This document shows positions 2,302 through 24,404 of a stretch of 24,404 nt of DNA, in pieces (within the stretch, counting starts at the first letter, position 1; each line of letters starts with the position of its first letter). The notes beneath the pieces are model-generated. The model had not been told where the DNA came from. It searched no databases and saw only the letters and a list, made by a program, of their open reading frames with translations. This stretch comes from Candidatus Krumholzibacteriota bacterium (lineage in GTDB: Bacteria; Krumholzibacteriota; Krumholzibacteriia; Krumholzibacteriales; Krumholzibacteriaceae): positions 1-24,404 of the forward strand of contig JBFYZJ010000278.1 of the NCBI GenBank assembly GCA_041309565.1. The letters are read 5' to 3'. Position numbers and translations under genes: made by a program.

Positions 2302-2316
2302 TCCGCCATCGAACGG

Positions 2317-3107
<791 letters not shown>

Positions 3108-3126
3108 CGGTCCGTTCTTCCGGGAG

Positions 3127-3167: not shown

Positions 3168-3206
3168 GCCCGGCGGGCGCCGGTCACCGAAAGGGGGAGG
3201 CCCACC

Positions 3207-4157: not shown

Positions 4158-4185
4158 CGGCAGGCTTTTGCATAGAGGAGATTCA

Positions 4186-5484: not shown

Positions 5485-5497
5485 GAGGACAATCGCC

Positions 5498-7932: not shown

Positions 7933-8840
7933 AGCAGCGCGCGGCGCGATTCTCGATCGGTCCCGTCGCATTCAGGAACCGCGTGTTTCTCGCCTCCGGT
8001 CCGGCGGGCTACGGCGTCGAGTACGCCGATTTCATCAGGCTCGACCGGCTCGGGGGCGTCGTCACGAAAACGATCACACTCCGTCCGCGGGCCGGCAATC
8101 CCGGCCGGCGCCTTTGGGAGACGAGCGCGGGGCTCCTCAACAGCATCGGGCTCGAGAACGTGGGGGCGGTCGTCTTCTTCGCCGAGAAGCTCCCGGCGCT
8201 CGCCGCCGCCGGCGCGAAGCCCGTCGTGAGCCTCGGCGCCGAGGATTGGGACGATTACCGCCGGCTCCTCGACGCCGCAGCCGGCTGCGGCGGCGCCGAC
8301 GCGTTCGAGATCAACCTCTCGTGCCCGAACGTCGAGCGGGGGGGCATGGCGGTGGGGAGCGATCCCGAGCTGTTGGCGAAATACGTGCGCCGCGCCGTCG
8401 AAACGCTCGAGGGGCGTGCCGTCATCGCGAAGCTCACGCCGAACGTGAGCGACGTCGCCGTTCTCGCCAAAGCGGCGGCCTCCGCGGGGGCGCACGCGCT
8501 CACCGCGATCAACACGGTCGTCGGCGCCGATCTGTGCCCCGATCTCCGCGCGCCCGTGTTCCGGCGCGTGAGGGCGGGCCTGTCCGGGCCGGCGATCCTC
8601 CCGGTGGCGCTCGATGCCGTCTGGAAGATCGCGCGCGCCGTCGATATCCCCGTCATCGGCTCGGGCGGCGTGTCGAGCGTGGATGACGCCGGGAAATTCT
8701 TCGCGGCGGGAGCCGCGGCCGTGCAGGTCGGCACGGCGATCTTCGCCGATCCGGGTCTGCCCGAGCGCATCGCCGCCTCGCTCGCGAGGCGGGGGATCCC
8801 GCGGGCCATCGGCGCGAAACCGTCATCGAAGGAGTGCTGA
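7929..8840 (+). CDS. pyrD: Dihydroorotate dehydrogenase family 1B catalytic subunit
   Basis: KTIT, NSIGLEN, EINLSCPNV (catalytic Cys), KLTPN, GLSGPAI, GSGG, QVGTA. ATG 7929 overlaps the pyrK stop; 303 aa. Confidence 0.95.
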   Translation: MKQRAARFSIGPVAFRNRVFLASGPAGYGVEYADFIRLDRLGGVVTKTITLRPRAGNPGRRLWETSAGLLNSIGLENVGAVVFFAEKLPALAAAGAKPVVSLGAEDWDDYRRLLDAAAGCGGADAFEINLSCPNVERGGMAVGSDPELLAKYVRRAVETLEGRAVIAKLTPNVSDVAVLAKAAASAGAHALTAINTVVGADLCPDLRAPVFRRVRAGLSGPAILPVALDAVWKIARAVDIPVIGSGGVSSVDDAGKFFAAGAAAVQVGTAIFADPGLPERIAASLARRGIPRAIGAKPSSKEC

Positions 8841-10960: not shown

Positions 10961-11057
10961 TGGAAAGTTAAGCTCCGCGCCGGGACGTTCCGCGGGCCGC
11001 AGGAACGGATGCGCCCCGTGCGCCGTCCTCGCATACCATTTGCAGAAGGGGAACGAG

Positions 11058-12020
11058 ATGAGAGTCCTCATTACCGGAATCACGGGTTTCGCCGGAAGCC
11101 ATCTCGCCGATCTCTGCCTCGCGAAGAAGGGCGTCGAGCTCTTCGGGATCGTGCGGTGGCGGAGCAGGACCGAAAACATCGAGCATGTATGGGACCGGTT
11201 GAAGCTCATCGAATGCGATCTCCGCGACGCGACGTCCACCCGCGACGCGATCGAGGAGATCCGCCCCGACTGGATCTTCCACCTCGCCGCACAGAGCTTC
11301 GTCCCGACCTCGTGGAACGCGCCGACGGAATCGCTCGTCACCAACATCGTCGGGCAGCTCAACGTGTTCGAGGCCGTGCGCAAGATCAACCTCGCGTGCC
11401 GCATCCAGATCGCGTGCTCGAGCGAGGAGTACGGCATGGTCTACCCGGACGAGGTCCCGATCAGGGAGACGAATCCCCTGCGGCCCCTGAGCCCCTACGC
11501 GGTGAGCAAGGTGGGGCAGGACATGCTCGCGTACCAGTACTTCATGAGCTATCGCACGGACGTCGTGCGGACGCGCGGATTCAACCACACGGGCCCCCGC
11601 CGCCCCGCGATTTTCGTCTGCTCCGATTTCGCCAAGCAGATCATCGATATCGAGCGCGGCGCCCGGAAGCCGGTCATCCGGGTCGGGAACCTCGACGCGC
11701 GCCGCGATTTCACCGACGTGCGCGACATCGTGCGCGGATACTGGCTCGCGCTGGAGAAGGGGAAGAGCGGCGAGGTGTACAACCTCTGCTCGGGAACGAG
11801 CTACCGCATCAGCGAAATCCTGGACATGCTCCTGTCGCTCGCGGGGGTGAAGGCCGAGGTCAAACAGGACGCCGCGCGGCTCAGGCCGAGCGACGTGCCG
11901 CACCTCGAGGGCTCCAACGAGAAATTCCGGGCGGATACGGGCTGGAAGCCCGAGATCCCGTTCGAACAGACGCTCAGGGATCTCCTCGATTTCTGGCGGA
12001 ACAATCCCGGCAGGAGATAG
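11058..12020 (+). CDS. GDP-mannose 4,6-dehydratase / GDP-6-deoxy-4-keto-mannose reductase (RMD)-like extended SDR, copy 1
   Basis: LITGITGFAG, FHLAAQSFV, SSEEYG, PYAVSK (YxxxK), FNHTGPRR, RRDFTDVRD; RBS AAGGGG before ATG 11058; 320 aa. Confidence 0.85.
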   Translation: MRVLITGITGFAGSHLADLCLAKKGVELFGIVRWRSRTENIEHVWDRLKLIECDLRDATSTRDAIEEIRPDWIFHLAAQSFVPTSWNAPTESLVTNIVGQLNVFEAVRKINLACRIQIACSSEEYGMVYPDEVPIRETNPLRPLSPYAVSKVGQDMLAYQYFMSYRTDVVRTRGFNHTGPRRPAIFVCSDFAKQIIDIERGARKPVIRVGNLDARRDFTDVRDIVRGYWLALEKGKSGEVYNLCSGTSYRISEILDMLLSLAGVKAEVKQDAARLRPSDVPHLEGSNEKFRADTGWKPEIPFEQTLRDLLDFWRNNPGRR

Positions 12021-12042
12021 CGCCCGCCGGGCTGGAGTGGTC

Positions 12043-13017
12043 ATGCGTTCACTGGTCACCGGGGCCGGCGGCTTCGTCGGCGGCTATCTCGTGCGCGAGC
12101 TCGCGGCCGCGGGGCACGAGGTCATCGCGACCGACGTCGTCGAGCCGTCGGGGCTGCCGGGCGACATCGCGCGGCGCCGCTGCGATCTCCTCGACGGCGC
12201 CGCCGTGAAGGCGCTCGTTGCGGAGGTCCGACCCGATTACGTGTTTCATCTCGCCGCGCAGAGCTCGGCGGCGCGTTCGTTCGACGAGCCGCGCTCGACG
12301 CTCGAAACGAACGTGTTCGGCACGCTCAACCTGCTCGAGGGCGTCCGATTCCTGCCGTACGAGTGCCCGGGCGCGAAGACGCGATCGGGGAAAGTCCGCG
12401 TCCTCTCCGTCGGCTCGAGCGAGGAGTACGGGCGGAGGCCGCGCGGCGCGATGCCGCTCGGCGAGGAGAGCCCGATCGAGCCGGTGAGCCCGTACGCGGT
12501 GAGCAAGGCGGCGCAGACGATGCTCGCGCTCCAGTACGAGCTCGCGTTCGGCATGGACGTCGTCGCCGCGCGGAGCTTCGGGCACACGGGGCCCGGGCAG
12601 ACCGTGCGTTTCGTGCTTCCCGCGTTCGCGCGCCAGTGCGCGGAGATACGGGCCGGGAAGCGCGAGCCGGTCGTGAAGGTCGGCAACCTCGACGTCGTCC
12701 GCGATTATCTCGACGTCCGCGACGTCGTCAGGGCGTACCGGATGCTCGCCGAGGACGCGAGCGAGCCGGGCGTGTACAACGTGTGCTCGGGGGAGGGGGT
12801 GCCGCTGCGCGACGCGCTCGATTTCCTCGTCCGCGCGTGCGGCGTCCCGGTGCGGATCGAGGAAGATCCGGGGCTCGTCCGCCCCGCGGATATACCGGCG
12901 CTCGTCGGCGACAACGCGCGTCTGCGGCGCGCCTGCGGGTGGCGGCGGGAGCATTCGACCGAGGATATGCTCGGAACGCTGTTCGAATACTGGGAACGCA
13001 TCGCAAGGGAGACATGA
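12043..13017 (+). CDS. GDP-mannose 4,6-dehydratase / RMD-like extended SDR, copy 2
   Basis: LVTGAGGFVG, FHLAAQSS, GSSEEYG, PYAVSK, HTGPGQ, VRDYLDVRD; GGAG RBS 12034-12037; 324 aa. Confidence 0.85.
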   Translation: MRSLVTGAGGFVGGYLVRELAAAGHEVIATDVVEPSGLPGDIARRRCDLLDGAAVKALVAEVRPDYVFHLAAQSSAARSFDEPRSTLETNVFGTLNLLEGVRFLPYECPGAKTRSGKVRVLSVGSSEEYGRRPRGAMPLGEESPIEPVSPYAVSKAAQTMLALQYELAFGMDVVAARSFGHTGPGQTVRFVLPAFARQCAEIRAGKREPVVKVGNLDVVRDYLDVRDVVRAYRMLAEDASEPGVYNVCSGEGVPLRDALDFLVRACGVPVRIEEDPGLVRPADIPALVGDNARLRRACGWRREHSTEDMLGTLFEYWERIARET

Positions 13018-14331
13018 ATGTTCAAAGTTTGCATGGTCGGAACCGGTTACGTGGGGCTCGTGAGCGGCGCGTGTCTCGCCGATTTCGGCAATCGCGTGAT
13101 CTGCGTCGATATCGACGAGGCGCGGCTCGACTCGATCCGCAACGGGGTCATGCCGATATACGAGCCGGGGCTCAAGGACCTCGTCGCGCGCAACTACTCG
13201 GCGGGGCGGCTCGTGTTCTCGTCCGATCTCAAATCGGCAGTCGAGGATTCGACGGTCATCTTCTCGGCGGTCGGGACGCCCGAGCGCGAGGACGGCTCGG
13301 CCGATCTCTCGTCGGTGTTCACGGTCGCGAAGGATATCGCCTCCCATATGCGCGAGTACCGCGTCTTCGTTCAGAAGAGCACGGTGCCCGTCGGAACGTC
13401 GGAGCGGGTCGGGGACATCATCCGGGAGAACCTCCGGGTCCCGGTCGAATTCGACCGCGTGTCGAATCCCGAGTTTCTCCGGGAAGGCTCGGCGATCGAG
13501 GATTTCATGCGCCCGAACCGCGTCGTCATCGGCGTCGAAAACGAGCGCGCGCGGGAGATCATGCGGGAGATCTACCGGCCGCTCTACCTCCTCGAGACGC
13601 CGATCGTCTTCACGTCCATCCGGACGGCCGAGCTCATCAAGTACGCGAGCAACGCGTTCCTGGCGACGAAGATCTCGTTCATCAACGAGATCGCCGAGCT
13701 CTGCGAGAAGGCGGGAGCGGACGTGGACGAGGTCGCGCGGGCGATGGGCCTCGACCGCCGGATCGGGCCGAAGTTCCTGCACGCGGGCATCGGATACGGC
13801 GGATCGTGCCTGCCGAAGGACGTGGCGGCGATCATCCACACGGCCGACGAAGCGGGCGTGCCCCTTCGTGTCATCAAGGCGGCCTCGGAGGTGAACCGGG
13901 CGCTCATCGACCGGCTCATGGAGAAGATCGGGAGCGAGCTGCCGGACCTCGCGGGGAAGACGATCGCCGTGCTCGGGCTCTCGTTCAAGCCGAACACGGA
14001 CGACGTGCGTGAATCGCCGGCGCTCCGTCTCGTCGAGCGCCTGCTCGACGCCGGCGCGCGCGTCAACGCGTACGACCCCGCGGCGATGGACAACGTGCGC
14101 CGGATCCACGGGGGCCGGATTTCGTACTGCGAGGACTCGTACGGCGCCGTCCGGGGCGCCGACGCGCTCGTCATCATGACCGAGTGGAACGAGTTTCGCG
14201 TGCTCGATCTCGACACGGCGAAGAAGCTTCTCCGAAACCCCGTCGTGTTCGATTGCCGGAACATCTACCAGCCGGAAGCGATGGAGAAGATGGGATTCAC
14301 GTATCATTCCTTCGGGAGGGTGACGCGGTAG
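13018..14331 (+). CDS. ugd: UDP-glucose 6-dehydrogenase (UDP-glucose/GDP-mannose dehydrogenase family)
   Basis: GTGYVG, KSTVPVG, NPEFLREG, AELIKYASNAFLATKISFINE, GYGGSCLPKD (catalytic Cys). Confidence 0.93.
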   Translation: MFKVCMVGTGYVGLVSGACLADFGNRVICVDIDEARLDSIRNGVMPIYEPGLKDLVARNYSAGRLVFSSDLKSAVEDSTVIFSAVGTPEREDGSADLSSVFTVAKDIASHMREYRVFVQKSTVPVGTSERVGDIIRENLRVPVEFDRVSNPEFLREGSAIEDFMRPNRVVIGVENERAREIMREIYRPLYLLETPIVFTSIRTAELIKYASNAFLATKISFINEIAELCEKAGADVDEVARAMGLDRRIGPKFLHAGIGYGGSCLPKDVAAIIHTADEAGVPLRVIKAASEVNRALIDRLMEKIGSELPDLAGKTIAVLGLSFKPNTDDVRESPALRLVERLLDAGARVNAYDPAAMDNVRRIHGGRISYCEDSYGAVRGADALVIMTEWNEFRVLDLDTAKKLLRNPVVFDCRNIYQPEAMEKMGFTYHSFGRVTR

Positions 14332-14375
14332 CGGACCGCGCGCGGCTCCCGCAACCGGGCCGCAAGGAGGCGCCG

Positions 14376-15410
14376 ATGCGGAAGATCCTCGTCACGGGGG
14401 GAGCGGGATTCATCGGGTCGAATTTCGTCCGACTCCTCCGCCGGGAGGGGCGGAAGGTCGAGATCACCGTTCTCGACAAGCTCACGTACGCCGGCAATCT
14501 GGACAACGTGCGCGAATTCATGAAGCGGAGGGATTTCCGGTTCGTCCGCGGGGACATCGGCGACGCCCGCCTGCTCGACGAGCTGCTTCCCGGCGTCGAC
14601 ATCGTCTACAACTTCGCCGCGGAAACGCACGTCGACCGTTCGATTCTCGAGGCGGGAAGCTTCGTGAAGACGGACGTGCTCGGCACGTACGTGCTCCTGC
14701 AGCGCGCGCTCAAGGCGCGCGTGCCCCGCTTCGTCCAGGTGTCGACCGACGAGGTGTACGGCAGCACCGCGCGCGGGAGCTTCCGGGAGAGCGATCCCGT
14801 GCAGCCGAACAGCCCCTACTCGGCGAGCAAATCGGGCGCCGACCTCCTCGTGCGCGCGTTTCACAAGACGTACGGCTTTCCCGCCGTGATCACGCGGAGC
14901 TCGAACAACTACGGGCCGTACCAGCACCCCGAGAAATTCATCCCGCTCTTCATCACGAACGCGATCGAGGGCAAACCGCTGCCGATCTACGGCGACGGCT
15001 CGAACGTGCGCGACTGGATCTACGTCGAGGACAACTGCCGGGCGATCGAGCTCGTCGGACGGCGGGGGATCGTCGGGGAGGCGTACAACATCGGCGCCGA
15101 CGAGGAGCATCCGAACATCGAGATCGCACGGAAGATCATCGAGCTCACCGGCGCGGACCGGGAGCTGCTCACGTTCGTTTCCGATCGGCCCGGGCACGAC
15201 TGGCGCTACTCGCTCGACGCGCGGAAGATCCGCGCCCTCGGATGGCGGCCGCGCGTCGAATTCGACGAAGGCATCGAGCACACCGTGCGCTGGTACGAGC
15301 GCAACGCGATCTGGTGGAAGCCCGTCAAGGAGGGCAGCTTCAAGCGCTACTACGCGAAGCTCTACCGTTCGCGGATCGGGGAATCGACGCGGCGAAAGGA
15401 GAAACGGTGA
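14376..15410 (+). CDS. rfbB: dTDP-glucose 4,6-dehydratase
   Basis: VTGGAGFIGSNF, DKLTYAGN, AAETHVDRS, STDEVYG, PYSASK, NNYGP, RDWIYVED, DRPGHD; RBS AAGGAGG 14364-14370; 344 aa. Confidence 0.95.
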   Translation: MRKILVTGGAGFIGSNFVRLLRREGRKVEITVLDKLTYAGNLDNVREFMKRRDFRFVRGDIGDARLLDELLPGVDIVYNFAAETHVDRSILEAGSFVKTDVLGTYVLLQRALKARVPRFVQVSTDEVYGSTARGSFRESDPVQPNSPYSASKSGADLLVRAFHKTYGFPAVITRSSNNYGPYQHPEKFIPLFITNAIEGKPLPIYGDGSNVRDWIYVEDNCRAIELVGRRGIVGEAYNIGADEEHPNIEIARKIIELTGADRELLTFVSDRPGHDWRYSLDARKIRALGWRPRVEFDEGIEHTVRWYERNAIWWKPVKEGSFKRYYAKLYRSRIGESTRRKEKR

Positions 15411-16498
15411 AGACGGCGGTCATCGTCGGAGCCCGGCCGAATTTCATGAAAGCGGCGCCGCTCATCCGCGAGTTCAGGAAGCGCCGCCGTTTCGAGTGCA
15501 TGTTGATCCACACGGGGCAGCATTACGACGAGAACATGTCGCGCGTGTTTTTCGAAGACCTCGAGCTCCCGGAGCCCGATATCCATCTCGGCGTCGGATC
15601 GGGATCCCACGCGGAGCAGACGGCGCGGATCATGACCGCGTTCGAGGACGTCGTCGCGCGGGAGCGCCTCGATCTCGTCATCGTCGTCGGGGATGTGAAC
15701 TCGACGCTGGCCTGCTCGCTCGTCGCGGCGAAAGCGCTCGTTCCGGTCGCCCACGTCGAGGCGGGGCTCCGGAGCTTCGATCTCGCGATGCCCGAGGAGA
15801 TCAACCGCATGGTAACCGACATCCTCTCGCGCTACTGCTTCACGACCTCCCCCGAGGCGGAGACGAATCTGCTGCGCGAGGGGGTGGGGCCCGAGCGAAT
15901 CTTCTTCGTCGGCAACATCATGATCGATTCGCTCCTCTTCTACCTCGAGAAAGCGGAGCGCTCCCGCGTGCTCGAGAATCTCGGCGCGGCGCCGGGAGGA
16001 TACGTGCTCGTCACGTTGCACCGGCCGTCCAACGTCGACGAGGGAGGGGTGTTCGCCCGCCTCATGGAGGCGCTCGCCGGTCTCTCGCGGTCGCTCCCCG
16101 TGATCTTTCCGGTCCATCCGCGGACGCGGAAAACGATCGAATCGTCGCGCGGCGCCGTCGAGATCCCCGACGGACTGAAGCTCATCGAGCCGCTCGGCTA
16201 TCTCGATTTCGTCAAGGCGATGCGCCACGCGCGCATCGTCGTCACCGATTCGGGCGGCATCCAGGAGGAGACCACGGTGCTCGGTGTTCCGTGCATCACG
16301 GTGCGCGAGAACACGGAGCGGCCGATCACGGTCGAGATTGGTACGAACGTGCTCGTCGGATCCGATCCCGGCAAAATCCGTGACGAGGCCGCGCGGATTC
16401 TCGCCGGTCCCGCGCGTCCCCACCGCGTGCCGCCTCTTTGGGACGGGAAGGCCGCGGAGCGGATCGCCGACGTTCTCGAACGACGGTTCCCGGCCTGA
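15407..16498 (+). CDS. wecB: UDP-N-acetylglucosamine 2-epimerase (non-hydrolysing)
   Basis: GARPNFMK, HTGQHYD, GDVNST, HVEAGLRS, PEEINR, TDSGGIQEE, RENTERP; GTGA overlap with rfbB, RBS AAAGGAG 15395-15401. Confidence 0.93.
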   Translation: MKTAVIVGARPNFMKAAPLIREFRKRRRFECMLIHTGQHYDENMSRVFFEDLELPEPDIHLGVGSGSHAEQTARIMTAFEDVVARERLDLVIVVGDVNSTLACSLVAAKALVPVAHVEAGLRSFDLAMPEEINRMVTDILSRYCFTTSPEAETNLLREGVGPERIFFVGNIMIDSLLFYLEKAERSRVLENLGAAPGGYVLVTLHRPSNVDEGGVFARLMEALAGLSRSLPVIFPVHPRTRKTIESSRGAVEIPDGLKLIEPLGYLDFVKAMRHARIVVTDSGGIQEETTVLGVPCITVRENTERPITVEIGTNVLVGSDPGKIRDEAARILAGPARPHRVPPLWDGKAAERIADVLERRFPA

Positions 16499-16533
16499 TC
16501 GTGCCATGGCTCGGCCCATCCCCGGCGGGAAAC

Positions 16534-18000
16534 ATGCGTGAGAAGATCAAGGAACTGACCAAGGACACGGCGATCTACGGCATCTCCACCATCATCGGCC
16601 GTTTCCTCGGCTTTCTGCTCGTTCCCTTCTACACCCATTTCATATCGCGCGGCGACATGGGCATCTACGCCAACATCTACGCGTATATGGCGTTCCTGAA
16701 CATCGTCTGCATCTACGGCATGGACGCCGCGTTCATGAAGTACAGCTCGCTGGCCGCGCCGGAGCGCAAGAAGCAGACCTTCTCGACCGCCTACCTGTTC
16801 GTCGTCCTGTCGACCCTGTTCCTCGCCGCGCTGCTGTTTGCGCTGCGCGGGCCGTTCGCCGCTTTGATGGAAGTCCCCGGCCTCTATCGCAGACTGGTCT
16901 CGTACGTCGTTTTCATCCTGTTCTTCGATACCCTGGCCCTGATTCCCTTCGCCAACCTGCGCCTCGAGCGGAAGGCGAAGAAATTCGCCGCGATCAAGCT
17001 CGTCAACATCCTGCTCAACCTCGGATTGAATCTCCTGTTTTTCATCACCTTCCGCCTCGGCATCGAGTCCATATTCGTCGCGAACCTCATCGCGTCCGCC
17101 GTGACGTTCCTGGCGCTCCTGCCGGAGATCCGGCCGAGGCTGCGTTTCCGGATCGAGGGCGCTCAGCTGCGGCAGATGCTGCGCTTCGGCCTGCCCTATC
17201 TTCCGGCAAGTCTGGCATCGATGATGGTCCAGGTCATCGATCGGCCCATCGTCCTGGCCCTGACCGACGCCGATACGCTCGGGCTGTATCAGACCGGCCA
17301 CAAGCTCGGCGTTTTCATGATGCTGGTGGTTTCCATGTTCCAATACGCCTGGCAGCCGTTTTTCCTGAACAACGCCCGGGAGAAAAACGCAAAGCAGATG
17401 TTCGCCGCGATCATGACCTTGTTCGTCCTGGCAGCCAGCCTGCTCTGGGTGATCGTTTCCCTGTTCATCGACAACGTCGCCGGCCTGGAATTCGCCCCCG
17501 GACGAACGCTCATCGAGGGGAGCTTCCTTCCCGGGCTGGTCGTGGTGCCGGTCATCCTGCTCGCGTACCTTTTCAACGGCATCTACGTCAACCTGCAGGC
17601 CGGGATATACATCGAGGAAAAGACGAAGTATTTCCCGCTCGTGACCGTGGCGGGCGCCGCGGTCAACGTGGCGGCCAACCTGTTCCTGATACCGCCGCTG
17701 GGCATCATGGGGGCTGCGTTGGCCGTGCTCGCGAGCTACGTCGTGATGGCGCTCTCGCTCTTCCTCGTCACGCGCCGGATCTATCCGGTCGCGTACGAGT
17801 TCGGGAAGCTGGCGAAGATCTTGGCGACGGTCATCGTCACCGGGCTCGCCTACTACTACCTGTATTACCGCGTCGGCCTGGAGCTCTGGCACAGATTCAT
17901 CCTCCTCGGGGCATTCGTCGCGATGCTCGCCCTCCTGCGCGTCGTCGGGAAAGAGGATCTGCGGCGCCTGCGCCGGCGGCTCCCTGAAAGTCCCGCTTGA
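16534..18000 (+). CDS. wzx: Oligosaccharide flippase (Wzx/MOP superfamily)
   Basis: 488 aa, about 13-14 TM helices; KDTAIYGISTIIGRFLGFLLVPFYT N-terminus, GLYQTGHKL, FQYAWQP. Confidence 0.85.
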   Translation: MREKIKELTKDTAIYGISTIIGRFLGFLLVPFYTHFISRGDMGIYANIYAYMAFLNIVCIYGMDAAFMKYSSLAAPERKKQTFSTAYLFVVLSTLFLAALLFALRGPFAALMEVPGLYRRLVSYVVFILFFDTLALIPFANLRLERKAKKFAAIKLVNILLNLGLNLLFFITFRLGIESIFVANLIASAVTFLALLPEIRPRLRFRIEGAQLRQMLRFGLPYLPASLASMMVQVIDRPIVLALTDADTLGLYQTGHKLGVFMMLVVSMFQYAWQPFFLNNAREKNAKQMFAAIMTLFVLAASLLWVIVSLFIDNVAGLEFAPGRTLIEGSFLPGLVVVPVILLAYLFNGIYVNLQAGIYIEEKTKYFPLVTVAGAAVNVAANLFLIPPLGIMGAALAVLASYVVMALSLFLVTRRIYPVAYEFGKLAKILATVIVTGLAYYYLYYRVGLELWHRFILLGAFVAMLALLRVVGKEDLRRLRRRLPESPA

Positions 18001-18025
18001 CACGTCAGTCCGGATATTCAATGCT
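17997..18025 (+). promoter_or_regulatory. Possible internal promoter for the WecA-like gene
   Basis: Perfect TTGACA (17997-18002, overlapping the wzx stop) - 17 nt - weak -10 AATGCT. Confidence 0.35.
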
Positions 18026-18059
18026 TTGAGGAGAAGCACGGATACCAAGGAGATGAACC

Positions 18060-19166
18060 GTGACGAGAATCGGGCTCTTGACGGCGGTCGTTCTATCCTT
18101 CGCGCTCGGGTTGCTCTTCACGCCGCTCGTCCGGGGCATGGCGACGCGCCTGCGAATCTGCGAGAAGCCGAACGGGCGCACGAGCAGGGATATCGTGCAT
18201 ATCGGCGGCGTCGGCATCATCGGTGCGATCCTCTTCACGCTCCTGCCGACGTTCCTGTTCTTCCTGCCCGGCGGACCGGTCGTGCAGGCGTTCACCCCGG
18301 TGCTGATCGCGAGCGGCTTTCTCATCTTTCTCCTCGGCATCATCGACGACCTGCGGAGCCTGCACTACATCTACAAGCTCATTCTGCAGATCGCCGTCTC
18401 GGTTTTCGTCGCCGCCGTGGGACTCGCGCTCCTCATGCATTTCGGCGCGTCCCACATCGCCGTGTATCTCATCGTGCCGCTGGTCTTCGCGATCGCCGGT
18501 TGGATGCTCGTCGTCACGACGTCGTTCAACCTGATCGACGGGCTCGACGGGCTCGCGTCGGGGCTCGCGTTCATCGCGGCGGCGGCGTTCGCCGTCGCCG
18601 GCCAGCTTTTCGGCCAGCCGCTCGTCGTCGCGGTCGCGCTCGTCGTATGCGGCGCGACGCTCTCGTTTCTCAGATATAACTTTCCTCCGGCGACGATCTT
18701 CATGGGCGATTCGGGCAGCCTCTTCCTCGGCCTGCTGTTCGGGCTCGTTTCGCTGCTGCTCCTCGTACCGGGGGACCGCGTCTTCTACCGGATCGCAGGG
18801 GATATCATGATCCTCGCCGTGCCGATCCTCGACACGGCGCTCGCATTCACGCGGCGGATGCTCACGCGCCGCCCCGTGTTCGAGGCCGATCACCGGCATA
18901 TCCACCACATGCTCCTCTACCGGTGCCGGTCGGCGCGGAGCGTCGATCTCACGCTCTGGGGAGTGTCCGCCGTCTTCGGCGCGCTCGGCGTTCTCACGAT
19001 GCGGGGAAGCATCGTCGCGCTCGCCGCGGGATCGGCGCTCGCGCTGTTCGTATTCGTGATCGCGCTCCGCTCGATGGTGCGCTTCAAAATGCCCGTCACG
19101 GCCGAGGAGGAGATTCTCGGCGTGTGCGGCATCACCTCCGCCCGGGGCGTCGCGCGCCAGCGATAG
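18060..19166 (+). CDS. Undecaprenyl-phosphate N-acetylhexosamine-1-phosphate transferase (WecA/TagO, MraY-like family)
   Basis: GIIDDL, FNLIDGLDGLA, YNFPPATIFMGDSGS, PILDT, DHRHIHH; RBS AAGGAG 18047-18052 before GTG. Confidence 0.9.
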   Translation: MTRIGLLTAVVLSFALGLLFTPLVRGMATRLRICEKPNGRTSRDIVHIGGVGIIGAILFTLLPTFLFFLPGGPVVQAFTPVLIASGFLIFLLGIIDDLRSLHYIYKLILQIAVSVFVAAVGLALLMHFGASHIAVYLIVPLVFAIAGWMLVVTTSFNLIDGLDGLASGLAFIAAAAFAVAGQLFGQPLVVAVALVVCGATLSFLRYNFPPATIFMGDSGSLFLGLLFGLVSLLLLVPGDRVFYRIAGDIMILAVPILDTALAFTRRMLTRRPVFEADHRHIHHMLLYRCRSARSVDLTLWGVSAVFGALGVLTMRGSIVALAAGSALALFVFVIALRSMVRFKMPVTAEEEILGVCGITSARGVARQR

Positions 19167-19198
19167 TCCGCCCGCGCTCCGCGTCGCCGTCTTTCCAA

Positions 19199-19227
19199 TT
19201 GCGTTTTCAGGAGTGCTGTGATAGCTT
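19199..19227 (+). promoter_or_regulatory. sigma70-type promoter with extended -10 upstream of the HemC-like gene
   Basis: TTGCGT (19199-19204) - 17 nt - TAGCTT (19222-19227), preceded by TG-n (19219-19221). Confidence 0.6.
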
Positions 19228-19273
19228 CGTCCCCGGGATTACGTCAATGACGCACGCGCGAAGAGGAGACGCA

Positions 19274-20209
19274 ATGGGCCGCGCGAAACATATCATCATC
19301 GGCAGCCGCCGGGACGAGCTCTCGATGCTCTGTCGCGCGCATGTGCGCGCCGCACTCCTCGAGGCGCATCCGAACGCGGAATTCATGGACGCGCCCGACG
19401 GGCCGGGGCGGGACGATCGAGGACCGGCGGACCGGAAGATCGGCGCGCGCCGGGCGGCGACCCTGCTCCAGCGTCTGGTGAAAGGGGAGCTCGACGTCGT
19501 CGTGCTGGACGCGTGCCTGATCCCGCTCCAGATCGCCGGCACGCTCGAGATCGCGGCCGTATTGCCGAGGACGAATCCGTTCGATGCGCTCGTTTCGGTC
19601 GAGAGCCTCATTCTCGACGAGCAGCCCGAGAACGCGAGCGTCGCCGTGAGCGATCCGGTGAAGCGCGGGCAGCTTCTCTATTACCGGAGCGATCTCAAGC
19701 TCGTGAGCGGCGACGGCGATTTCAACGGTCTCTTCGAGGCGATGAATCGCGGGGCGGTCGACGCGTTCGTCTATCCGGCCGCCGACGTCGAGATGCTGAA
19801 TCAGCAGGAGCACGTCGCCGAGGTCTTCACGACGTCGATCTGCACGCCCGTCGCGGGACAGGGCGCGATCGCGCTCGTCGGCCGCCGCGACAGGAAGGAG
19901 ATCGCTTCGATGCTGCGGGATATCGGCGATCGGTCGGCGGCGGCGGAGGTCGAGATCGAGCGGATGTTCCTCGAGCGCGTCGCGAAGGACGGACGGGCTC
20001 CGGTCGGTGTCCTCGCCAACGTCGAGGAGAGCGAGTTCGAAATCGAAGCGGCGATCGTCGCCGTCGACGGCTCCGAGAAGATCACCGGCATCATGAGCGG
20101 CGCGCTCGCCGACCGCGCGCGGATCGTCGAAAAGCTCGCGGGAGAGATCCTCTCGTCGGGCGGGGAAGAAATCGTCGCATCGTTCAGAAAGCAGAAGGCG
20201 AACGGCTGA
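19274..20209 (+). CDS. Hydroxymethylbilane synthase (porphobilinogen deaminase, HemC)-fold protein, predicted catalytically inactive
   Basis: Colinear by eye with HemC over its full 311 aa (IGSR, PRTNPFDALVS, GQL, PVAGQGAIA, IER..L, VDGS, LAGEILSSGG), but lacks catalytic Asp84, cofactor Cys242 and most active-site Arg (E. coli numbering). RBS AGAGGAG 19262-19268. Confidence 0.8.
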   Translation: MGRAKHIIIGSRRDELSMLCRAHVRAALLEAHPNAEFMDAPDGPGRDDRGPADRKIGARRAATLLQRLVKGELDVVVLDACLIPLQIAGTLEIAAVLPRTNPFDALVSVESLILDEQPENASVAVSDPVKRGQLLYYRSDLKLVSGDGDFNGLFEAMNRGAVDAFVYPAADVEMLNQQEHVAEVFTTSICTPVAGQGAIALVGRRDRKEIASMLRDIGDRSAAAEVEIERMFLERVAKDGRAPVGVLANVEESEFEIEAAIVAVDGSEKITGIMSGALADRARIVEKLAGEILSSGGEEIVASFRKQKANG

Positions 20210-20213
20210 CGCG

Positions 20214-21485
20214 ATGCTCGACCGGAAACTCATACGGAAAGATCCCGAACGGGTGCGGGAAGGGCTGCGTCGCAAGGGATCGACGTTCGATCTCGACGCG
20301 TTCCTCGCGCTCGACGAGAAGCAGCGCGCGCTCATCCAGGAGACGGAGAATCTCAAGCACGAGCGGAACGAGGCCTCCCAGGAGATTTCGCGCCTCAAGA
20401 AGGAGAACCTCGACGCGACGGCGATTCTCGAGCGGATGAAGCGCTCCTCCGAGCGGATCAAGGAAATCGACGCCGAGCTCAAGGAGCTCGGCGCGCGGAT
20501 CGACGAGCAGGCGCTTCTCATTCCGAATCTCCCGCACGAGTCGGCGCCGTACGGCACGTGCCCGGAGCACAACGTGGTGCAGCGGTCCTGGGGTTCGGTT
20601 CCCGATCCGTTCGACGGGATGCTCCCGCACTGGGATATCGGCGAGAAGCTCGGAATCATCGATATCGGCGCCGGCAGCTGCCTGAGCGGCCGGGGATTCG
20701 TGGTGCTCCGCGGGGAGGGAGCGCGCCTGTCGCGGGCGCTCGTCAATTTCATGATCGATCTGCATCGCGAGCAGGGCTACGAGGAAATCTCGGTTCCGTA
20801 TCTCGTGAGTCGCGAATGCATGATCGGCACGGGACAGCTTCCGAAGCTCGCTGAGGACATGTACCACAGCGAAAAGGACGATCTCTTCCTCATCCCCACG
20901 GCCGAAGTGCCGCTCACCAACATGTACCGCGGGGCGGTGCTCGACGGGGCGCGCCTCCCGGTCAAGCTCACCGCGTTCAGCCCGTGCTTCCGCCGCGAGG
21001 CGGGGAGCTACGGACAGGACACCAAAGGGCTCGTTCGCGTGCATCAGTTCGACAAGGTCGAGATGGTGAAGCTCGTGGCTCCCGAGTCGTCGTACGAGGA
21101 GCTCGAAGCGCTCACGCGCGACGCGACCGCTGTCCTCGAGGCGCTCGAAATCCCCTACCGCGTCATCGAGCTCTGCACGATGGACATGAGCTTCGGCGCC
21201 GCGAAGTGTTACGATCTCGAAACCTACGCGCCGGCGATGGGACGCTGGCTCGAGGTATCGTCGTGCAGCAGCTTCGAGGATTTCCAGGCGCGCCGCGCGA
21301 ATATCCGTTTCAAACGGCAACCGAACGAGAAGCCCGAGTTCGTGCACACGCTGAACGGCTCGGGGCTCGCGCTTCCGCGGGTCATCGCGACGATCCTCGA
21401 GCTCAACCAGACGCCGACCGGCAAGGTCCGCATTCCCCGTGCCCTCGTCCCCTACCTGGGGGGCAGGGAATACCTCGAGGCCTGA
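20214..21485 (+). CDS. serS: Serine--tRNA ligase
   Basis: N-terminal coiled coil MLDRKLIR..., LIPTAEVP, CFRREAGSYGQDTKGLVRVHQFDKVE (motif 2), EVSSCS, HTLNGSGLA (motif 3). Confidence 0.97.
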   Translation: MLDRKLIRKDPERVREGLRRKGSTFDLDAFLALDEKQRALIQETENLKHERNEASQEISRLKKENLDATAILERMKRSSERIKEIDAELKELGARIDEQALLIPNLPHESAPYGTCPEHNVVQRSWGSVPDPFDGMLPHWDIGEKLGIIDIGAGSCLSGRGFVVLRGEGARLSRALVNFMIDLHREQGYEEISVPYLVSRECMIGTGQLPKLAEDMYHSEKDDLFLIPTAEVPLTNMYRGAVLDGARLPVKLTAFSPCFRREAGSYGQDTKGLVRVHQFDKVEMVKLVAPESSYEELEALTRDATAVLEALEIPYRVIELCTMDMSFGAAKCYDLETYAPAMGRWLEVSSCSSFEDFQARRANIRFKRQPNEKPEFVHTLNGSGLALPRVIATILELNQTPTGKVRIPRALVPYLGGREYLEA

Positions 21486-21492
21486 TCGAACC

Positions 21493-22734
21493 ATGAGGGC
21501 GCCACGCAATTTTCCGTTTCTCCTCAAGGTGTATGTCATCGCGGGCAGCGTCGTCGTCGTCGCATTCGCCCTCATGTACAACAACGGCATCATCAAGAAA
21601 ATGAGCGTGCAGTCGGCGCGGACGACGAACCAGTACGCGCGCTTCATCGGGCTGCAGATCGACCAGCTCGACGACCGGGGCAGCTCCGAATTCATTCGGG
21701 AGACGCTCCGCGATCTGAACGCGCCGTGCATCATCACGGACGCCGCCGGACGACCGATGATCTGGAATCAGCAGACCGGGATTCCGCCGCTCGGTCCGGA
21801 CGAGTACGGCCGGATGATCAAATACGATCCCGCCGCCCCGAACGATCCGCTGCTCGAGAAGGTCCAGCGGAGGGCGCTCGCCTACGACCGGGTGAACGAG
21901 CCGGTTCTCATCGAGTCGGAGAAGCTGCGGGCGGTGCTCCACTACGGCCCGTCGTCGCTCTCGCGGGAGCTCGCCGTCGCGCAGTACGTGCAGATCGGCG
22001 TCTTCGTGGTTTTCGTCCTGTTCGGGTTCCTCGGGTTCCGGGTGGTGAAGAGCGGCGAGCAGCGGTCGATCTGGGTCGGTATGGCGAAGGAGACCGCCCA
22101 TCAGCTCGGCACGCCCCTCTCGTCGATCATGGGGTGGATCGCCATGATCCGCGAGGAGCTCGCGGCGGCGCGCGGCTCGGAGAAGCTCTCGATGGCGATC
22201 GACGAGGTCGAGACGGACGTCGAACGGTTGAGCAAGATCTCCGCTCGGTTCAGCAAGATCGGTTCGGCGCCGAAGCTCGACCTCCAGGAGCTCGTCCCGA
22301 TCGTCGACGAGACGGTGCGCTACTTCGAACGGAGACGCCCGACGCTCAAAATCAACTCGACGATCACGACCGAATCGGACGAGCTCCCCCTCATCCGGTG
22401 CAGCAAGGAGCTCATCGGGTGGGTCATCGAGAACATGATCAAGAATTCGCTCGACGCGATCGCGGGGGACGAGGGGAAGATCCATATTCAGTGCCGGATG
22501 AACGAGCGCGAGCGGCGCGTCGAGATCCTCTTCGGCGATAACGGCAAGGGAATGAGCCCGGGGGTGCGCAAGCGCGTCTTCTCTCCCGGATTCACCACGA
22601 AGAGCCGCGGCTGGGGGCTCGGGCTGTCGCTCGTGAAGCGCATCGTCGAGGATATTCACGGCGGATCGATCAAGGTTCTCGAGTCGCAGCCGGGAAAAGG
22701 GACGACGTTTCTCATCACCTTTCCGGTCGATTGA
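21493..22734 (+). CDS. porY: Membrane sensor histidine kinase, PorY-like
   Basis: Two TM helices flanking a ~140-aa sensor domain; H box WVGMAKETAHQLGTPLSS, N box VIENMIKNSLDA, DNGKG, FSPGFTTK, GWGLGL. PorY assignment rests on recalled motif similarity plus adjacency to porX; 413 aa. Confidence 0.75.
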   Translation: MRAPRNFPFLLKVYVIAGSVVVVAFALMYNNGIIKKMSVQSARTTNQYARFIGLQIDQLDDRGSSEFIRETLRDLNAPCIITDAAGRPMIWNQQTGIPPLGPDEYGRMIKYDPAAPNDPLLEKVQRRALAYDRVNEPVLIESEKLRAVLHYGPSSLSRELAVAQYVQIGVFVVFVLFGFLGFRVVKSGEQRSIWVGMAKETAHQLGTPLSSIMGWIAMIREELAAARGSEKLSMAIDEVETDVERLSKISARFSKIGSAPKLDLQELVPIVDETVRYFERRRPTLKINSTITTESDELPLIRCSKELIGWVIENMIKNSLDAIAGDEGKIHIQCRMNERERRVEILFGDNGKGMSPGVRKRVFSPGFTTKSRGWGLGLSLVKRIVEDIHGGSIKVLESQPGKGTTFLITFPVD

Positions 22735-22756
22735 CCGGGGGAGCGGATCGGAGCGT

Positions 22757-24310
22757 ATGGCGAAGGAAAAGCGTATTCTCTGGGTGGACGACGAGATCGA
22801 TCTCCTGAGCTCCCATATCATGTTTCTCGGAACAAAAGGGTACGCGGTGACGTCCGCCTCGAGCGGGGACGAAGGGGTTGCCGCGCTCAAGACGGGGCGG
22901 TTCGATCTTGTCCTCCTCGACGAGACGATGCCGGGCAAGAGCGGGCTCGAGACGCTGCAGGAGATCAAGGAGATCGATTCGAACCTGCCCGTCATCATGA
23001 TCACGAAGAACGAGGCGGAAGGCCTCGTCGACCAGGCCATCGGCATGAAGATCGACGACTATCTCCTCAAGCCCGTGAATCCGCTCCAGATCTACTCGGC
23101 GGCGAAGCGCATCCTCGACGCGCATCGCATCCAGGAGACCGTGCTCAGCAAGGATTACCTCCAGGCGTACCAGCGGATCGACGGGAATCTGCACGCGAGC
23201 CCGGACTGGCGCGGCTGGATCGACATTCATCAGGAGCTTTCCCTGTGGGACGTCGAGTTCGACCGTTTCAGCGCGACGGGGCTCGAGCAGACCCAGCAGG
23301 ATCTCAAGAAGAAATCGAACTCCGATTTCGCGCGCTATATCGAGCGCGTCTACCCGGGCTGGATGCGCGACTCGGAGCGACCCCCGCTGAGCGTCGACGT
23401 GATGAAGCGCTGGGTGTTTCCGCGCCTCAAGGACGGGAAGAAGGTCTACTTCGTGCTCATCGACTGCATGCGGTACGACCAGTGGCTCAAGATCGAGGAT
23501 CTGCTGGCTCCTTTCTATAATATAGAACGGGAGTGCTACTACTCCATTCTGCCAACGGCGACGCCGTACGCGCGGAACGCGATATTCGCCGGCGCCTTTC
23601 CGTCCGAGATCCAGAAACGAACCCCGGAGCAATGGCTCGAGCGATCGAAGGACGAGTTCAGCAAGAACCGCTTCGAGCACGCCTTTCTGCAGGAGCAGCT
23701 CGCGCGGGCGGGCCTCGCCGGCGTGACGACGAAATACATCAAAATTTACGAGATCGAGGAGGCGAACGAGATCCGCAAGCAGGTCGACAGCTACCGCGGC
23801 ATCGATCTCGTGTCCATGGTGTTCAACTTTCTCGATATCCTCGCGCACGGCCGCAGCCAGAGCGAGATCCTGCAGGAGATCGCGCCCGACGAGAGCGCTT
23901 TCCGGTCGCTCATGCGCTCGTGGTTCGTCCATTCGGCGCTCTTCGATATCCTCCAGCGGATATCGAAGCACGGCTCCACCGTGGTCATCACGACCGATCA
24001 CGGCTCGATCCTCGGCGCGCGGGCGAGCCTCGTGCACGGGAACCGCGACACCTCGACGAATCTCAGGTACAAGTTCGGCGAGAACATCAACGGCGACCCG
24101 CGGCAGACGCTCCTGATCCGCAAACCGGGCGAGTACAACCTGCCCGCGGAGGGTCCTTCCAAGAACTACATTCTCGCGAAGGAGAATTTCTACTTCGTCT
24201 ATCCGACGAAATTCCACGAGTACGAACGGCAATACATGGGGACGTTCCAGCACGGCGGAATCTCGCTCGACGAAATGGTCGTGCCGTGCGTCACCCTGAC
24301 CCCGAGGTAA
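22757..24310 (+). CDS. porX: PorX-type response regulator: receiver domain fused to a PglZ/alkaline-phosphatase-superfamily domain
   Basis: REC: ILWVDDE, LLDETMPG (phospho-Asp), MITK, LLKPVNP. PglZ: LIDCMRYDQW, SILPTATPYARNAIF, NFLDILAH, TTDHG, FQHGGISL. Confidence 0.92.
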   Translation: MAKEKRILWVDDEIDLLSSHIMFLGTKGYAVTSASSGDEGVAALKTGRFDLVLLDETMPGKSGLETLQEIKEIDSNLPVIMITKNEAEGLVDQAIGMKIDDYLLKPVNPLQIYSAAKRILDAHRIQETVLSKDYLQAYQRIDGNLHASPDWRGWIDIHQELSLWDVEFDRFSATGLEQTQQDLKKKSNSDFARYIERVYPGWMRDSERPPLSVDVMKRWVFPRLKDGKKVYFVLIDCMRYDQWLKIEDLLAPFYNIERECYYSILPTATPYARNAIFAGAFPSEIQKRTPEQWLERSKDEFSKNRFEHAFLQEQLARAGLAGVTTKYIKIYEIEEANEIRKQVDSYRGIDLVSMVFNFLDILAHGRSQSEILQEIAPDESAFRSLMRSWFVHSALFDILQRISKHGSTVVITTDHGSILGARASLVHGNRDTSTNLRYKFGENINGDPRQTLLIRKPGEYNLPAEGPSKNYILAKENFYFVYPTKFHEYERQYMGTFQHGGISLDEMVVPCVTLTPR

Positions 24311-24313
24311 GTC

Positions 24314-24404
24314 ATGTCTCCGCATCGCGGCCGTCGCGGACCGGAACGGGAAGCGGGGGGGGCGTGGGAGCGCCTCGATCGCTTCGAGGGGGAGCGTGCT
24401 CGCG
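24314..24404 (+). CDS. Possible start of the next gene, truncated by window edge; product unknown
   Basis: ATG 3 nt after the porX stop, open to the end (MSPHRGRRGPEREAGGAWERLDRFEGERAR). An alternative GTG at 24396 after GAGGGGGAG is also possible. Confidence 0.3.
   Translation, partial: MSPHRGRRGPEREAGGAWERLDRFEGERAR

Follow-up and report, generated by a model that had tools for sequence, protein, structure and literature searches.

A kinase gene assigned to the PorY family lies directly upstream of a porX orthologue in a Candidatus Krumholzibacteriota genome

The closest described relatives of the gene pair presented here are porX and porY of Porphyromonas gingivalis. PorX is essential in that organism for secretion of the gingipains and other virulence factors, and PorY has been reported to pass a phosphoryl group to PorX and to bind, in the periplasm, the C-terminal domain of the T9SS cargo protein PorA (PMC4800418, PMC12152298). 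A Zn-dependent phosphodiesterase activity has been shown for PorX of P. gingivalis (PMC9757075) and of F. johnsoniae; the F. johnsoniae protein also binds the cytoplasmic domain of GldL/PorL, and two-component control of the T9SS in that species has not yet been reported. The P. gingivalis porX and porY genes lie far apart and have been described as orphans, and their status as a cognate pair is disputed (PMC4800418, PMC9757075, PMC11320123), in line with a previous sequence-only reading of the present locus. The kinase that activates PorX is still argued over: the genes are unlinked, porX and porY mutants differ in phenotype, and structural papers on PorX have proposed that the phosphoryl group comes instead from acetyl phosphate or from a different kinase. 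In the PorX/PorY literature that was searched, the linkage pattern of kinase and porX genes is not reported and conserved gene neighbourhood has not been used as evidence.

The window analysed here, a stretch of 24,404 nucleotides with 65% GC, carries a porY-like gene immediately followed by porX (Table 1). Its nearest named relatives, at 81–85% identity, are Candidatus Krumholzibacteria/-aceae, members of a phylum that a published multilocus analysis places in the FCB superphylum but outside the Bacteroidota; the host is therefore not a member of the Bacteroidetes, as had been suspected from the DNA alone. The two genes form part of a long housekeeping string on one strand, in the order hemC-serS-porY-porX-tsaE-tsaB-rimI, and both frames exhibit the GC3 signal of real genes (0.88 for the kinase and 0.86 for porX). 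The kinase open reading frame opens at a GTG at position 21439; its start was set at the ATG at 21493 because the homologues are 411–418 aa long and cover 96% of the frame. From the serS stop to this ATG is 7 nt. The kinase stop, a TGA ending at 22734, and the porX ATG at 22757 are separated by exactly the 22 nt originally noted, with the GGAG motif of the spacer 4 nt ahead of the porX ATG, and only 3 nt separate the porX stop from the tsaE ATG. A consensus scan of positions 18800–24404 detected no + strand terminator and no sigma-70-like site; the scan was uninformative, its counts equalling those expected from shuffled sequence, and its promoter consensus may not fit Krumholzibacteriota. Co-transcription of the kinase gene and porX is predicted on the strength of this spacing and of the absence of consensus signals. 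In a relative with 94% PorX identity (L201), tsaE likewise begins 3 nt past porX and is followed by tsaB and rimI, and the same gene string is present in relatives with PorX identities as low as 57%.

Table 1. Features of the porY-porX locus and their positions in the window.
Feature	Coordinates	Strand	Basis
serS (seryl-tRNA synthetase), upstream neighbour	20214..21485	+	Pfam Seryl_tRNA_N and tRNA-synt_2b; sequence read
porY-like sensor histidine kinase, 413 aa	21493..22734	+	Pfam HisKA and HATPase_c; hydropathy; BLASTP/phmmer against P. gingivalis PorY
Periplasmic sensor module, ~aa 32-159	21586..21969	+	Sensor-region HMM; AF2 model; Foldseek
His203 codon, predicted autophosphorylation site, in family signature KETAHQLGTPLSS	22099..22101	+	Motif position and family conservation
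Kinase-porX spacer, 22 nt, with GGAG ribosome-binding-like motif	22735..22756	+	Sequence read
porX (ATG to TAA), 517 aa: REC (aa 6-120), helical bundle, PglZ/alkaline-phosphatase-superfamily phosphodiesterase domain	22757..24310	+	NCBIfam, PDB, Pfam
Asp55 codon, predicted phospho-acceptor (P. gingivalis PorX Asp58)	22919..22921	+	Invariant in alignment A1; role from PMC9757075
Thr269 codon, predicted catalytic nucleophile of PglZ domain (P. gingivalis PorX Thr272)	23561..23563	+	Invariant in alignment A1; role from PMC9757075
tsaE start, truncated by window end	24314..24404	+	Sequence read; synteny with relative L201

By sequence, the regulator is clearly a PorX orthologue. It scores 638.4 bits against the NCBIfam model NF052313 (T9SS_RR_PorX; cutoff 300), with aa 6–517 aligned to model positions 2–513 of 513, and it matches the solved PorX structures of P. 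gingivalis and F. johnsoniae over aa 5–517 (PDB 7pv7, E 3e-129; 8ted, E 8e-129). Pfam assigns a Response_reg domain to aa 7–115 (E 6e-24) and a PglZ domain to aa 228–419, and identifies no DNA-binding domain. Alignment A1 has P. gingivalis PorX among its sequences; in it the REC residues D11, D12, D55, T83 and K105 are invariant, as are D236 (of the IDC motif), T269 (PTAT), D360 and H364 (D-x3-H), D414 and H415 (TDHG) and H499 (QHGG) of the PglZ domain; the P. gingivalis counterparts are D14, D15, D58, T86, K108, D239, T272, D361, H365, D415, H416 and H500 (PMC9757075). Residues of the phosphate-binding site (R273, N357) and the dimer interface (S384, S388) are also kept. This is in good agreement with the sequence-only reading, in which the protein was said to retain the phospho-acceptor Asp and the full bimetal set and to be free of a DNA-binding domain. 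These conserved residues suggest nucleotide hydrolysis as the probable output of the protein.

The kinase consists of a first transmembrane segment (~aa 8–31 by hydropathy), a periplasmic sensor (~aa 32–159), a second transmembrane segment (~aa 160–186), a DHp domain with His203 positioned 17 aa past TM2, and a catalytic ATPase domain. This is the architecture of PorY, in which a ~110–130-aa periplasmic sensor is enclosed by two membrane segments, found at aa 13–40 and 146–176 in the P. gingivalis protein, the second of which runs straight into the DHp; Pfam detects HisKA and HATPase_c in the window kinase and no cytoplasmic HAMP or PAS domain. Among 135 family members, which include P. gingivalis PorY, conservation of the H-box/DHp signature is 90% or higher. 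The sensor module is predicted to adopt a small alpha/beta PAS/PDC-like fold, based on secondary structure taken from an AF2 model with pLDDT values of 77–92 across aa 71–160. Foldseek searches with the full kinase model returned generic PAS-DHp-CA kinases as best matches, which provide no clue to the ligand.

For comparison, P. gingivalis porY was recovered by means of three published primers, with primer sites at nt 26 and nt 526 of the coding sequence, exactly as in the paper. A metagenome scan with the 18-mer porY primer produced more than 120 matches, most of them due to chance, and only the four loci carrying all three primers were accepted. With PorY as the one P. gingivalis kinase compared, BLASTP aligned it collinearly with the window kinase over 407 aa, from TM1 to the C terminus (205 bits, 33% identity), and phmmer gave an end-to-end match of 204 bits, which is just under that of the 150th best (210 bits) among 1.84 billion representative proteins; 553 of 548,257 kinase-like representatives reach an E value of 1e-30. 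Those 150 best listed matches, the nearest relatives of the kinase, include PorY-clade proteins that are 38–47% identical to P. gingivalis PorY, one of which clusters with a Muribaculaceae protein. The homology extends to the variable periplasmic sensor: a sensor-only HMM built without PorY matches P. gingivalis PorY at aa 7–172 (E 4.7e-20, model positions 7–190 of 195) and has no other match among ~950 background ORFs. Curated kinase families and kinases in the PDB, in contrast, score at best 80–123 bits, and over the kinase core alone; the PDB contains no PorY, and the generic cores matched there score at most 80 bits. NCBIfam has no curated PorY model, and the window sensor region matches none of its families. 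The labels "KinB/NtrC family", "HAMP domain-containing" and AtoS were set aside as uninformative, the last because P. gingivalis PorY itself scores best on AtoS in the absence of a PorY model. Taken over its whole length, the kinase is, as judged by homology, a member of the PorY family and does not fall outside it, and the original designation as PorY-like is upheld.

The distribution of the pairing was surveyed in the 80 best of at least 584 PorX matches, from FCB species, ranked by similarity to the window PorX. Names follow the deposited MAG labels, of which some (e.g., "Limnocylindria" and "Poribacteria") are doubtful; "Chitinophagaceae" is a further such label, grouping inside the Ignavibacteria PorX clade. 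In these 80 best matches, a PorY-like kinase gene is found directly upstream of porX at 17 loci and nearby at a further 4, in Fibrobacterota, Gemmatimonadota, Latescibacterota, Eisenbacteria, Zixibacteria and some Ignavibacteriales. Of the 25 loci labelled Bacteroidota among the 80 best, not one has the kinase beside or near porX, and no kinase was located within 8 kb of porX in the Flavobacteriia and Sphingobacteriia loci sampled; the host is not an ordinary member of the Bacteroidetes in which such linkage is common. The pairing also occurs in four Krumholzibacteriota relatives, and its recurrence there and at 17 of the 80 best loci argues against chance adjacency. The gap between the two genes ranges from −29 to +178 nt across the linked loci. 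In addition, the lengths of the longest contigs are identical for at least 29 kinase matches and PorX matches. The surrounding genes are conserved as well, with serS upstream of the PorY-like kinase at 7 of the 80 best survey loci and in all four Krumholzibacteriota relatives, and tsaE downstream of porX at 48 of the 80.

In a midpoint-rooted neighbor-joining tree of PorX, the linked and unlinked states fall into two blocks. Because the split in linkage follows the PorX tree, it suggests an operon that was ancestral in the FCB group and was later broken, although a midpoint-rooted NJ tree does not prove whether the operon was lost or gained. The divergences of kinase and PorX are correlated (r 0.95). 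P. gingivalis PorY, at 32.5% identity to the window kinase, falls within the range of the porX-linked kinases of distant phyla (31.6–44%), a comparison made by range alone, as close relatives dominate a regression of kinase on PorX identity and the long range is under-predicted. The proposal that this is a cognate, possibly ancestral pair is strengthened by linkage in at least six phylum-level FCB lineages, its absence from the Bacteroidota-labelled loci of the survey, and its agreement with the PorX tree.

It is likely that the two window genes are orthologous to porY and porX of P. gingivalis and form one transcription unit in a member of Candidatus Krumholzibacteriota. By homology to the P. 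gingivalis and F. johnsoniae proteins, a periplasmic signal, which in P. gingivalis is the C-terminal sorting domain of PorA, would trigger autophosphorylation of the kinase on His203, and the phosphoryl group would then pass to Asp55 of PorX. Phosphorylated PorX would dimerise, switching on a Zn-dependent phosphodiesterase whose substrates may be short linear or cyclic oligonucleotides such as pGpG; dimerisation may also allow it to act on protein partners, namely the PorL/GldL motor and an ECF sigma factor. In evolutionary terms, the operon would represent the ancestral FCB state, and its break-up would belong to the branch that gave rise to Cloacimonadota, Marinimicrobia, Calditrichota, Ignavibacteria/Chlorobi and Bacteroidota. 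Such an origin would support the view that PorX has PorY as its cognate kinase.

It is possible, though doubtful, that the linkage is instead derived, either by a single move of porY to a position beside porX in some FCB phyla or by horizontal spread of a porYX cassette, in which case it would have less bearing on the P. gingivalis pair. The unset polarity of the midpoint-rooted tree leaves room for such a history; in addition, both states occur within the Gemmatimonadota (linked at L160, unlinked at L188 and L200) and three "Ignavibacteriales"-labelled loci (L131, L138, unlabelled, and L141) group with Zixibacteria and not with other Ignavibacteria. The PorX tree otherwise tracks taxonomy, however, and linked and unlinked lineages have in common serS upstream and tsaE-tsaB-rimI-accD-folC downstream, a shared housekeeping string that points to vertical inheritance of the locus. 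Two-component pairs are operons by default, and the correlated divergence of the two proteins likewise speaks for a long-standing operon. That the kinase is an unrelated NtrB/AtoS-type neighbour serving some other regulator, with PorX phosphorylated by other means such as acetyl phosphate, appears very improbable. The JGI label "NtrC family sensor histidine kinase KinB" on the relatives, the best NCBIfam match, AtoS, and the donors proposed in the PorX structural papers could be read in this way, but that AtoS match is shared by P. gingivalis PorY, the sensor domain shows specific homology to that of PorY, the adjacency is kept across phyla at operon spacing, and no other regulator genes are located nearby. 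There is next to no likelihood that the REC-PglZ protein is a BREX/Pgl-type phage-defence component and not PorX, a reading that the data contradict: its PglZ domain does match BREX_PglZ_3 at 89 bits, but the cutoff of that model is 250, the PorX model is matched far more strongly, a REC domain is present, and the housekeeping neighbourhood contains no BREX partner genes.

The sequence-only reading saw a possible role for the pair in the control of a T9SS or another envelope function. A true PorY-PorX pair whose output in Krumholzibacteriota is something other than the T9SS, whether turnover of a nucleotide signal alone or envelope and surface-polysaccharide functions, is considered unlikely. 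Neither the window nor the 20-kb flanks of the four relatives were found to contain a T9SS component or a Por_Secre_tail cargo domain, and the literature search yielded no link between Krumholzibacteriota and the T9SS. A TPR lipoprotein encoded at 5447–7117 reaches just 78 bits on the PorW/SprE model, whose cutoff is 250, and was rejected as a candidate. The conserved neighbours comprise nucleotide-sugar, Wzx and WecA genes and LptD. Against this, genes of the T9SS usually lie dispersed, and not finding them within 20 kb therefore carries little weight; PorX is reported to co-occur with the T9SS even in species having core components only (PMC9757075); T9SS signals have been reported in Fibrobacter, a linked-operon lineage (PMC6851124); and sprA directly adjoins porX at 9 Ignavibacteria/Chlorobi-like loci among the 80 best of at least 584 matches. 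A bolder version, distinctly unlikely, holds that the lineages with the linked operon (Krumholzibacteriota and perhaps others) lack a canonical T9SS, porY-porX being an older envelope or nucleotide-signalling module with a conserved place next to genes for surface polysaccharide, LptD and tRNA modification; only in the Bacteroidota-Ignavibacteria branch would it have been drawn into T9SS control and split.

The preferred reading, an orthologous porY-porX transcription unit, refines a known system and does not define a new one, because neither the proteins nor the mechanism is new. It extends the PorXY system well beyond the Bacteroidota: at least six other FCB phyla carry a PorY-family kinase gene immediately before porX at operon spacing, and this conserved neighbourhood provides independent, genomic support for the PorY-PorX partnership. 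Such naturally paired, co-evolved PorY and PorX sequences could be used in phosphotransfer assays and in analyses of interface covariation, and the conserved (serS)-porY-porX-tsaE-tsaB frame offers a handle for tracing the evolution of T9SS regulation.

Compared with the described systems, the window pair most closely resembles that of P. gingivalis. PorX of that species (PGN_1019) shares with the window regulator the order of REC domain, three-helix bundle and PglZ domain, at ~40% identity and with the functional residues kept. In PorY (PGN_2001) the TM1-sensor-TM2-DHp-CA layout is the same as in the window kinase, the sensor is homologous and the H-box nearly identical. Identity between the two periplasmic sensors is only ~17%, and they may therefore respond to different ligands. 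The P. gingivalis genes are unlinked, and their products have PorA, SigP and the T9SS as known partners, whereas the window genes lie 22 nt apart in a co-directional string in a 65% GC Krumholzibacteriota host. PorX of F. johnsoniae (Fjoh_2906; PDB 8ted, 8p6f) matches the window PorX over its full length (E ~8e-129). The PglZ proteins of BREX/Pgl systems share its alkaline-phosphatase-superfamily fold and metal-site residues, but they are at least 600 aa long, lack a REC domain and occur with BREX partners, unlike the 517-aa protein described here. At the Ignavibacteria/Chlorobi-like loci, an orthologous porX is followed by tsaE-tsaB-(rimI)-accD as it is at the window locus, but the slot upstream of porX is occupied by sprA/sov (TIGR04189, 1077 bits) and not by a PorY-like kinase gene.

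The order of the genes in the window (24.4 kb, ~65% GC, nearly all genes on the plus strand) was assigned with Pfam and NCBIfam and is given in the table below. Reading of the sequence placed the kinase start codon, an ATG, 7 nt past the serS stop and the tsaE ATG 3 nt past the porX stop; from the start and stop positions of the kinase and porX, the coordinates of the pair and their spacing of 22 nt in the sequence-only reading are therefore exact.

Features of the window in gene order (gene assignments by Pfam and NCBIfam; tsaE by reading of the sequence)
Feature	Position	Strand	Remarks
M3-type peptidase			first in gene order
EamA transporter			
Pyrimidine genes			PyrR-like PRTase, pyrB, pyrC, TPR lipoprotein, pyrK, pyrD, pyrF
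TPR lipoprotein	5447-7117		556 aa; between pyrC and pyrK/pyrD
CitMHS transporter			
Nucleotide-sugar, Wzx and WecA cluster	11040-19166		three epimerase/dehydratases, UDP-sugar 6-dehydrogenase, UDP-GlcNAc 2-epimerase, Wzx flippase, WecA-like transferase
hemC (mechanical ORF)	18923-20209		428 aa, GTG start; overlaps end of WecA-like gene
serS			
PorY-like kinase	21493-22734	+	413 aa
porX	22757-24310	+	517 aa
tsaE, 5' part	24314-24404	+	truncated by window end

The hemC ORF is ~115 aa longer than the hemC genes called in relatives (304-311 aa), and its true start is probably near 19270.

The window regulator scored 638 bits on the NCBIfam equivalog T9SS_RR_PorX (cutoff 300), and matched the crystallised PorX proteins of Porphyromonas gingivalis (7pv7) and Flavobacterium johnsoniae (8ted and 8p6f) over aa 5-517 with E ~1e-129. 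A BREX-3 PglZ identity was rejected, the score of 89 bits being below the cutoff of 250. When the protein was aligned with seven relatives and P. gingivalis PorX, all functional residues named in PMC9757075 were invariant; these comprise (P. gingivalis numbering) D14, D15, D58, T86 and K108 of the REC domain, the zinc ligands and nucleophile D239, T272, D361, H365, D415, H416 and H500, the phosphate-binding R276 and N358, and S385 and S389 of the dimer interface. Pfam detected no third domain. Judged by its sequence, the regulator is a PorX orthologue, intact and lacking a DNA-binding domain as first described.

Neither a curated PorY model (NCBIfam) nor a PorY structure (PDB) exists, so P. 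gingivalis PorY itself was retrieved using the three porY primers in Table 2 of PMC8050853, the first of which was scanned against metagenome contigs. All three primers were present in four metagenome loci; in one of them, L044, the primers fall at nt 26 and 526 of the coding sequence of a 395-aa ORF (1201-2388), matching the published description. The window kinase aligns with this protein from TM1 to the C-terminus (205 bits, 33% identity, 407 aa), versus 80-123 bits at most, across the core only, for curated kinase families and PDB kinases. The two proteins are alike in topology, with two TM segments flanking a periplasmic module of ~110-130 aa and TM2 running straight into the DHp helix; in the AF2 model of the window kinase (pLDDT 74.6) this module is small, alpha/beta and PAS/PDC-like. 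When 18 porX-adjacent kinases, PorY not among them, were used to build an HMM spanning TM1, the sensor and TM2, the model matched P. gingivalis PorY at aa 7-172 (E 4.7e-20) and nothing else among ~950 background ORFs. A search of 1.84 billion representative proteins with the window kinase returned 548,257 kinase-like proteins, of which only 553 reach E 1e-30; P. gingivalis PorY, at 204 bits, ranks just under the 150th match (210 bits), and the top 150 include proteins 38-47% identical to it, one of which clusters with a Muribaculaceae protein. With 32.5% identity to the window kinase, P. gingivalis PorY lies as close to it as do porX-linked kinases of distant phyla (31.6-44%). Across 135 family members, P. 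gingivalis PorY among them, conservation of the H-box/DHp signature (W.G..KETAHQLGTP.SS..W ... RL..I..RF...GS.PK) is 90% or higher, which fits a constant regulator partner. The end-to-end alignment and the sensor match uphold the earlier call of a PorY-like kinase and assign the protein, at the sequence level, to the PorY family.

Three porX-adjacent kinases of this family, from two Latescibacterota and one Gemmatimonadetes genome (L130:6112-7971, L145:6130-7926 and L160:6151-7986), are ~600 aa each; the sensor HMM matches their periplasmic module two to three times, suggesting that the sensors are tandem-duplicated.

The survey of linkage called for by the sequence-only reading was made with a PorX alignment, run against a single genome from each GTDB species, taking the best 80 of at least 584 matches with 8-kb flanks; kinases were located by tblastn with the window kinase and with P. 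gingivalis PorY, and gaps were measured. A PorY-family kinase lies directly upstream of porX on the same strand, at a gap of -29 to +178 nt, in 17 of the 80 loci: by labels as deposited, Latescibacterota (3), Eisenbacteria (3), Zixibacteria (2), Fibrobacteraceae (2), Ignavibacteriales (2), Gemmatimonadetes (1), "Poribacteria" (1) and three without a lineage label. Four further loci, from Eisenbacteria and allies, have the kinase 0.9-5.4 kb upstream. The flanks of the other 59, seven with upstream sequence too short to judge, hold no PorY-family kinase; these include all 25 Bacteroidota-labelled loci (Sphingobacteriia, Flavobacteriia, Bacteroidales, Cytophagia, Balneolaceae and Rhodothermales), Cloacimonadota, Calditrichota, Marinimicrobia, most Ignavibacteria/Chlorobi and three Gemmatimonadota. 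The labels "Limnocylindria" (L122), "Poribacteria" (L135) and "Chitinophagaceae" (L139) look doubtful. Against P. gingivalis PorY, the porX-adjacent kinases score 174-229 bits and unrelated kinases of the same loci 49-67 bits.

In a midpoint-rooted NJ tree of PorX from the survey loci, the linked and unlinked states form two large blocks, which otherwise track taxonomy. The downstream string tsaE-tsaB-(rimI)-accD-folC is common to both blocks, and the porX locus therefore looks, from its gene content, vertically inherited. The parsimonious reading is an ancestral FCB porY-porX operon that was later broken in the branch containing Bacteroidota; our confidence in this is moderate because the tree is midpoint-rooted, the MAG labels are as deposited and the sample is non-exhaustive. 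Among the same best 80 of at least 584 matches, tsaE follows porX in 48, Bacteroidota included, usually with tsaB, rimI, accD and folC next. This synteny of porX with t6A genes is deeply conserved and is unmentioned in the PorX/PorY literature examined.

The nearest named relatives of the window kinase and PorX (81-85% identity, among the matches listed) are Candidatus Krumholzibacteria, Krumholzibacteriaceae or Krumholzibacteriota, a phylum assigned to the FCB superphylum, but not to Bacteroidota, by a multilocus analysis in the literature, in agreement with the non-Bacteroidetes host first suggested. Four relatives, with PorX identities of 94%, 72%, 58% and 57%, all have one gene string: nucleotide-sugar genes, WecA, (hemC), serS, kinase, porX, tsaE, tsaB, rimI, PNP, accD, folC, ROK, LptD and HU. 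The nucleotide-sugar/surface-polysaccharide cluster is syntenic with serS-porY-porX in all four, with the LptD-like gene kept downstream. Since T9SS cargo in P. gingivalis is anchored to a special LPS, this synteny may be relevant.

In L201, the relative with 94% PorX identity, UDP-GlcNAc 2-epimerase and Wzx are called as fragments of 132, 165 and 323 aa (2540-4210), whereas in the window (15242-18000) the two ORFs are intact at 418 and 520 aa; frameshifts or errors of assembly in the long-read contig of L201 are the likely cause. Another PorX with 94% identity to that of the window (P0121) is encoded on a 2.5-kb contig that NCBI labels "Methanoregulaceae archaeon"; this contig is almost certainly bacterial and mis-binned.

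Neither T9SS genes nor cargo domains were found in the window or in the 20-kb neighbourhoods of the four relatives, and the searched literature made no mention of a T9SS in Krumholzibacteriota. The TPR lipoprotein was ruled out as PorW/SprE (78 bits, cutoff 250); its score on the YbgF/CpoB TPR model is 120 bits. PorX is reported to occur with even minimal T9SS sets (PMC9757075), and T9SS signals have been reported from Fibrobacter (PMC6851124). In nine Ignavibacteria/Chlorobi-like loci among the best 80 of at least 584 matches (L139, L143, L147, L150, L151, L155, L159, L169 and L180), sprA/sov (~2330 aa, at about 900-7950; TIGR04189 at 1077 bits in L143) lies directly upstream of porX (at 8001), filling the slot that the PorY-like kinase holds in the window. 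This adjacency gives a genomic link of porX with T9SS outside Bacteroidia. By analogy, the co-occurrence of PorX with T9SS, the Fibrobacter signals and the nine sprA-porX loci would lend indirect backing to a T9SS in the window lineage.

Our comparisons establish the orthology of the kinase and PorX, their intact catalytic residues and a conserved operon-type linkage. If the pair works as in P. gingivalis and F. johnsoniae, a periplasmic cue, which the cargo PorA provides in P. gingivalis with its C-terminal sorting domain (PMC12152298), would lead to autophosphorylation of kinase His203, from which the phosphoryl group would move to PorX Asp55. Phospho-PorX would then dimerise; this would turn on its Zn-dependent phosphodiesterase, for which short or cyclic oligonucleotides are the substrates, and let it interact with PorL/GldL as well as with an ECF sigma factor.

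PorX has been reported as confined to the FCB group (PMC9757075). The porX and porY genes have been called orphan genes (PMC4800418, PMC9757075, PMC11320123), and two structural papers doubted PorY as the cognate kinase of PorX (PMC9757075, PMC11320123), in line with the sequence-only reading, which described the genes as unlinked and their partnership as debated. Full-text searching on both names turned up no description of porX and porY in one operon. Since the PorXY proteins and their mechanism are already known, the window pair adds a further member to an established system. Set within the wider phylogenetic pattern, the arrangement of its genes is useful as independent evidence that PorY and PorX are partners, and the porX-linked loci provide a set of natural PorY/PorX pairs in which that partnership can be tested.
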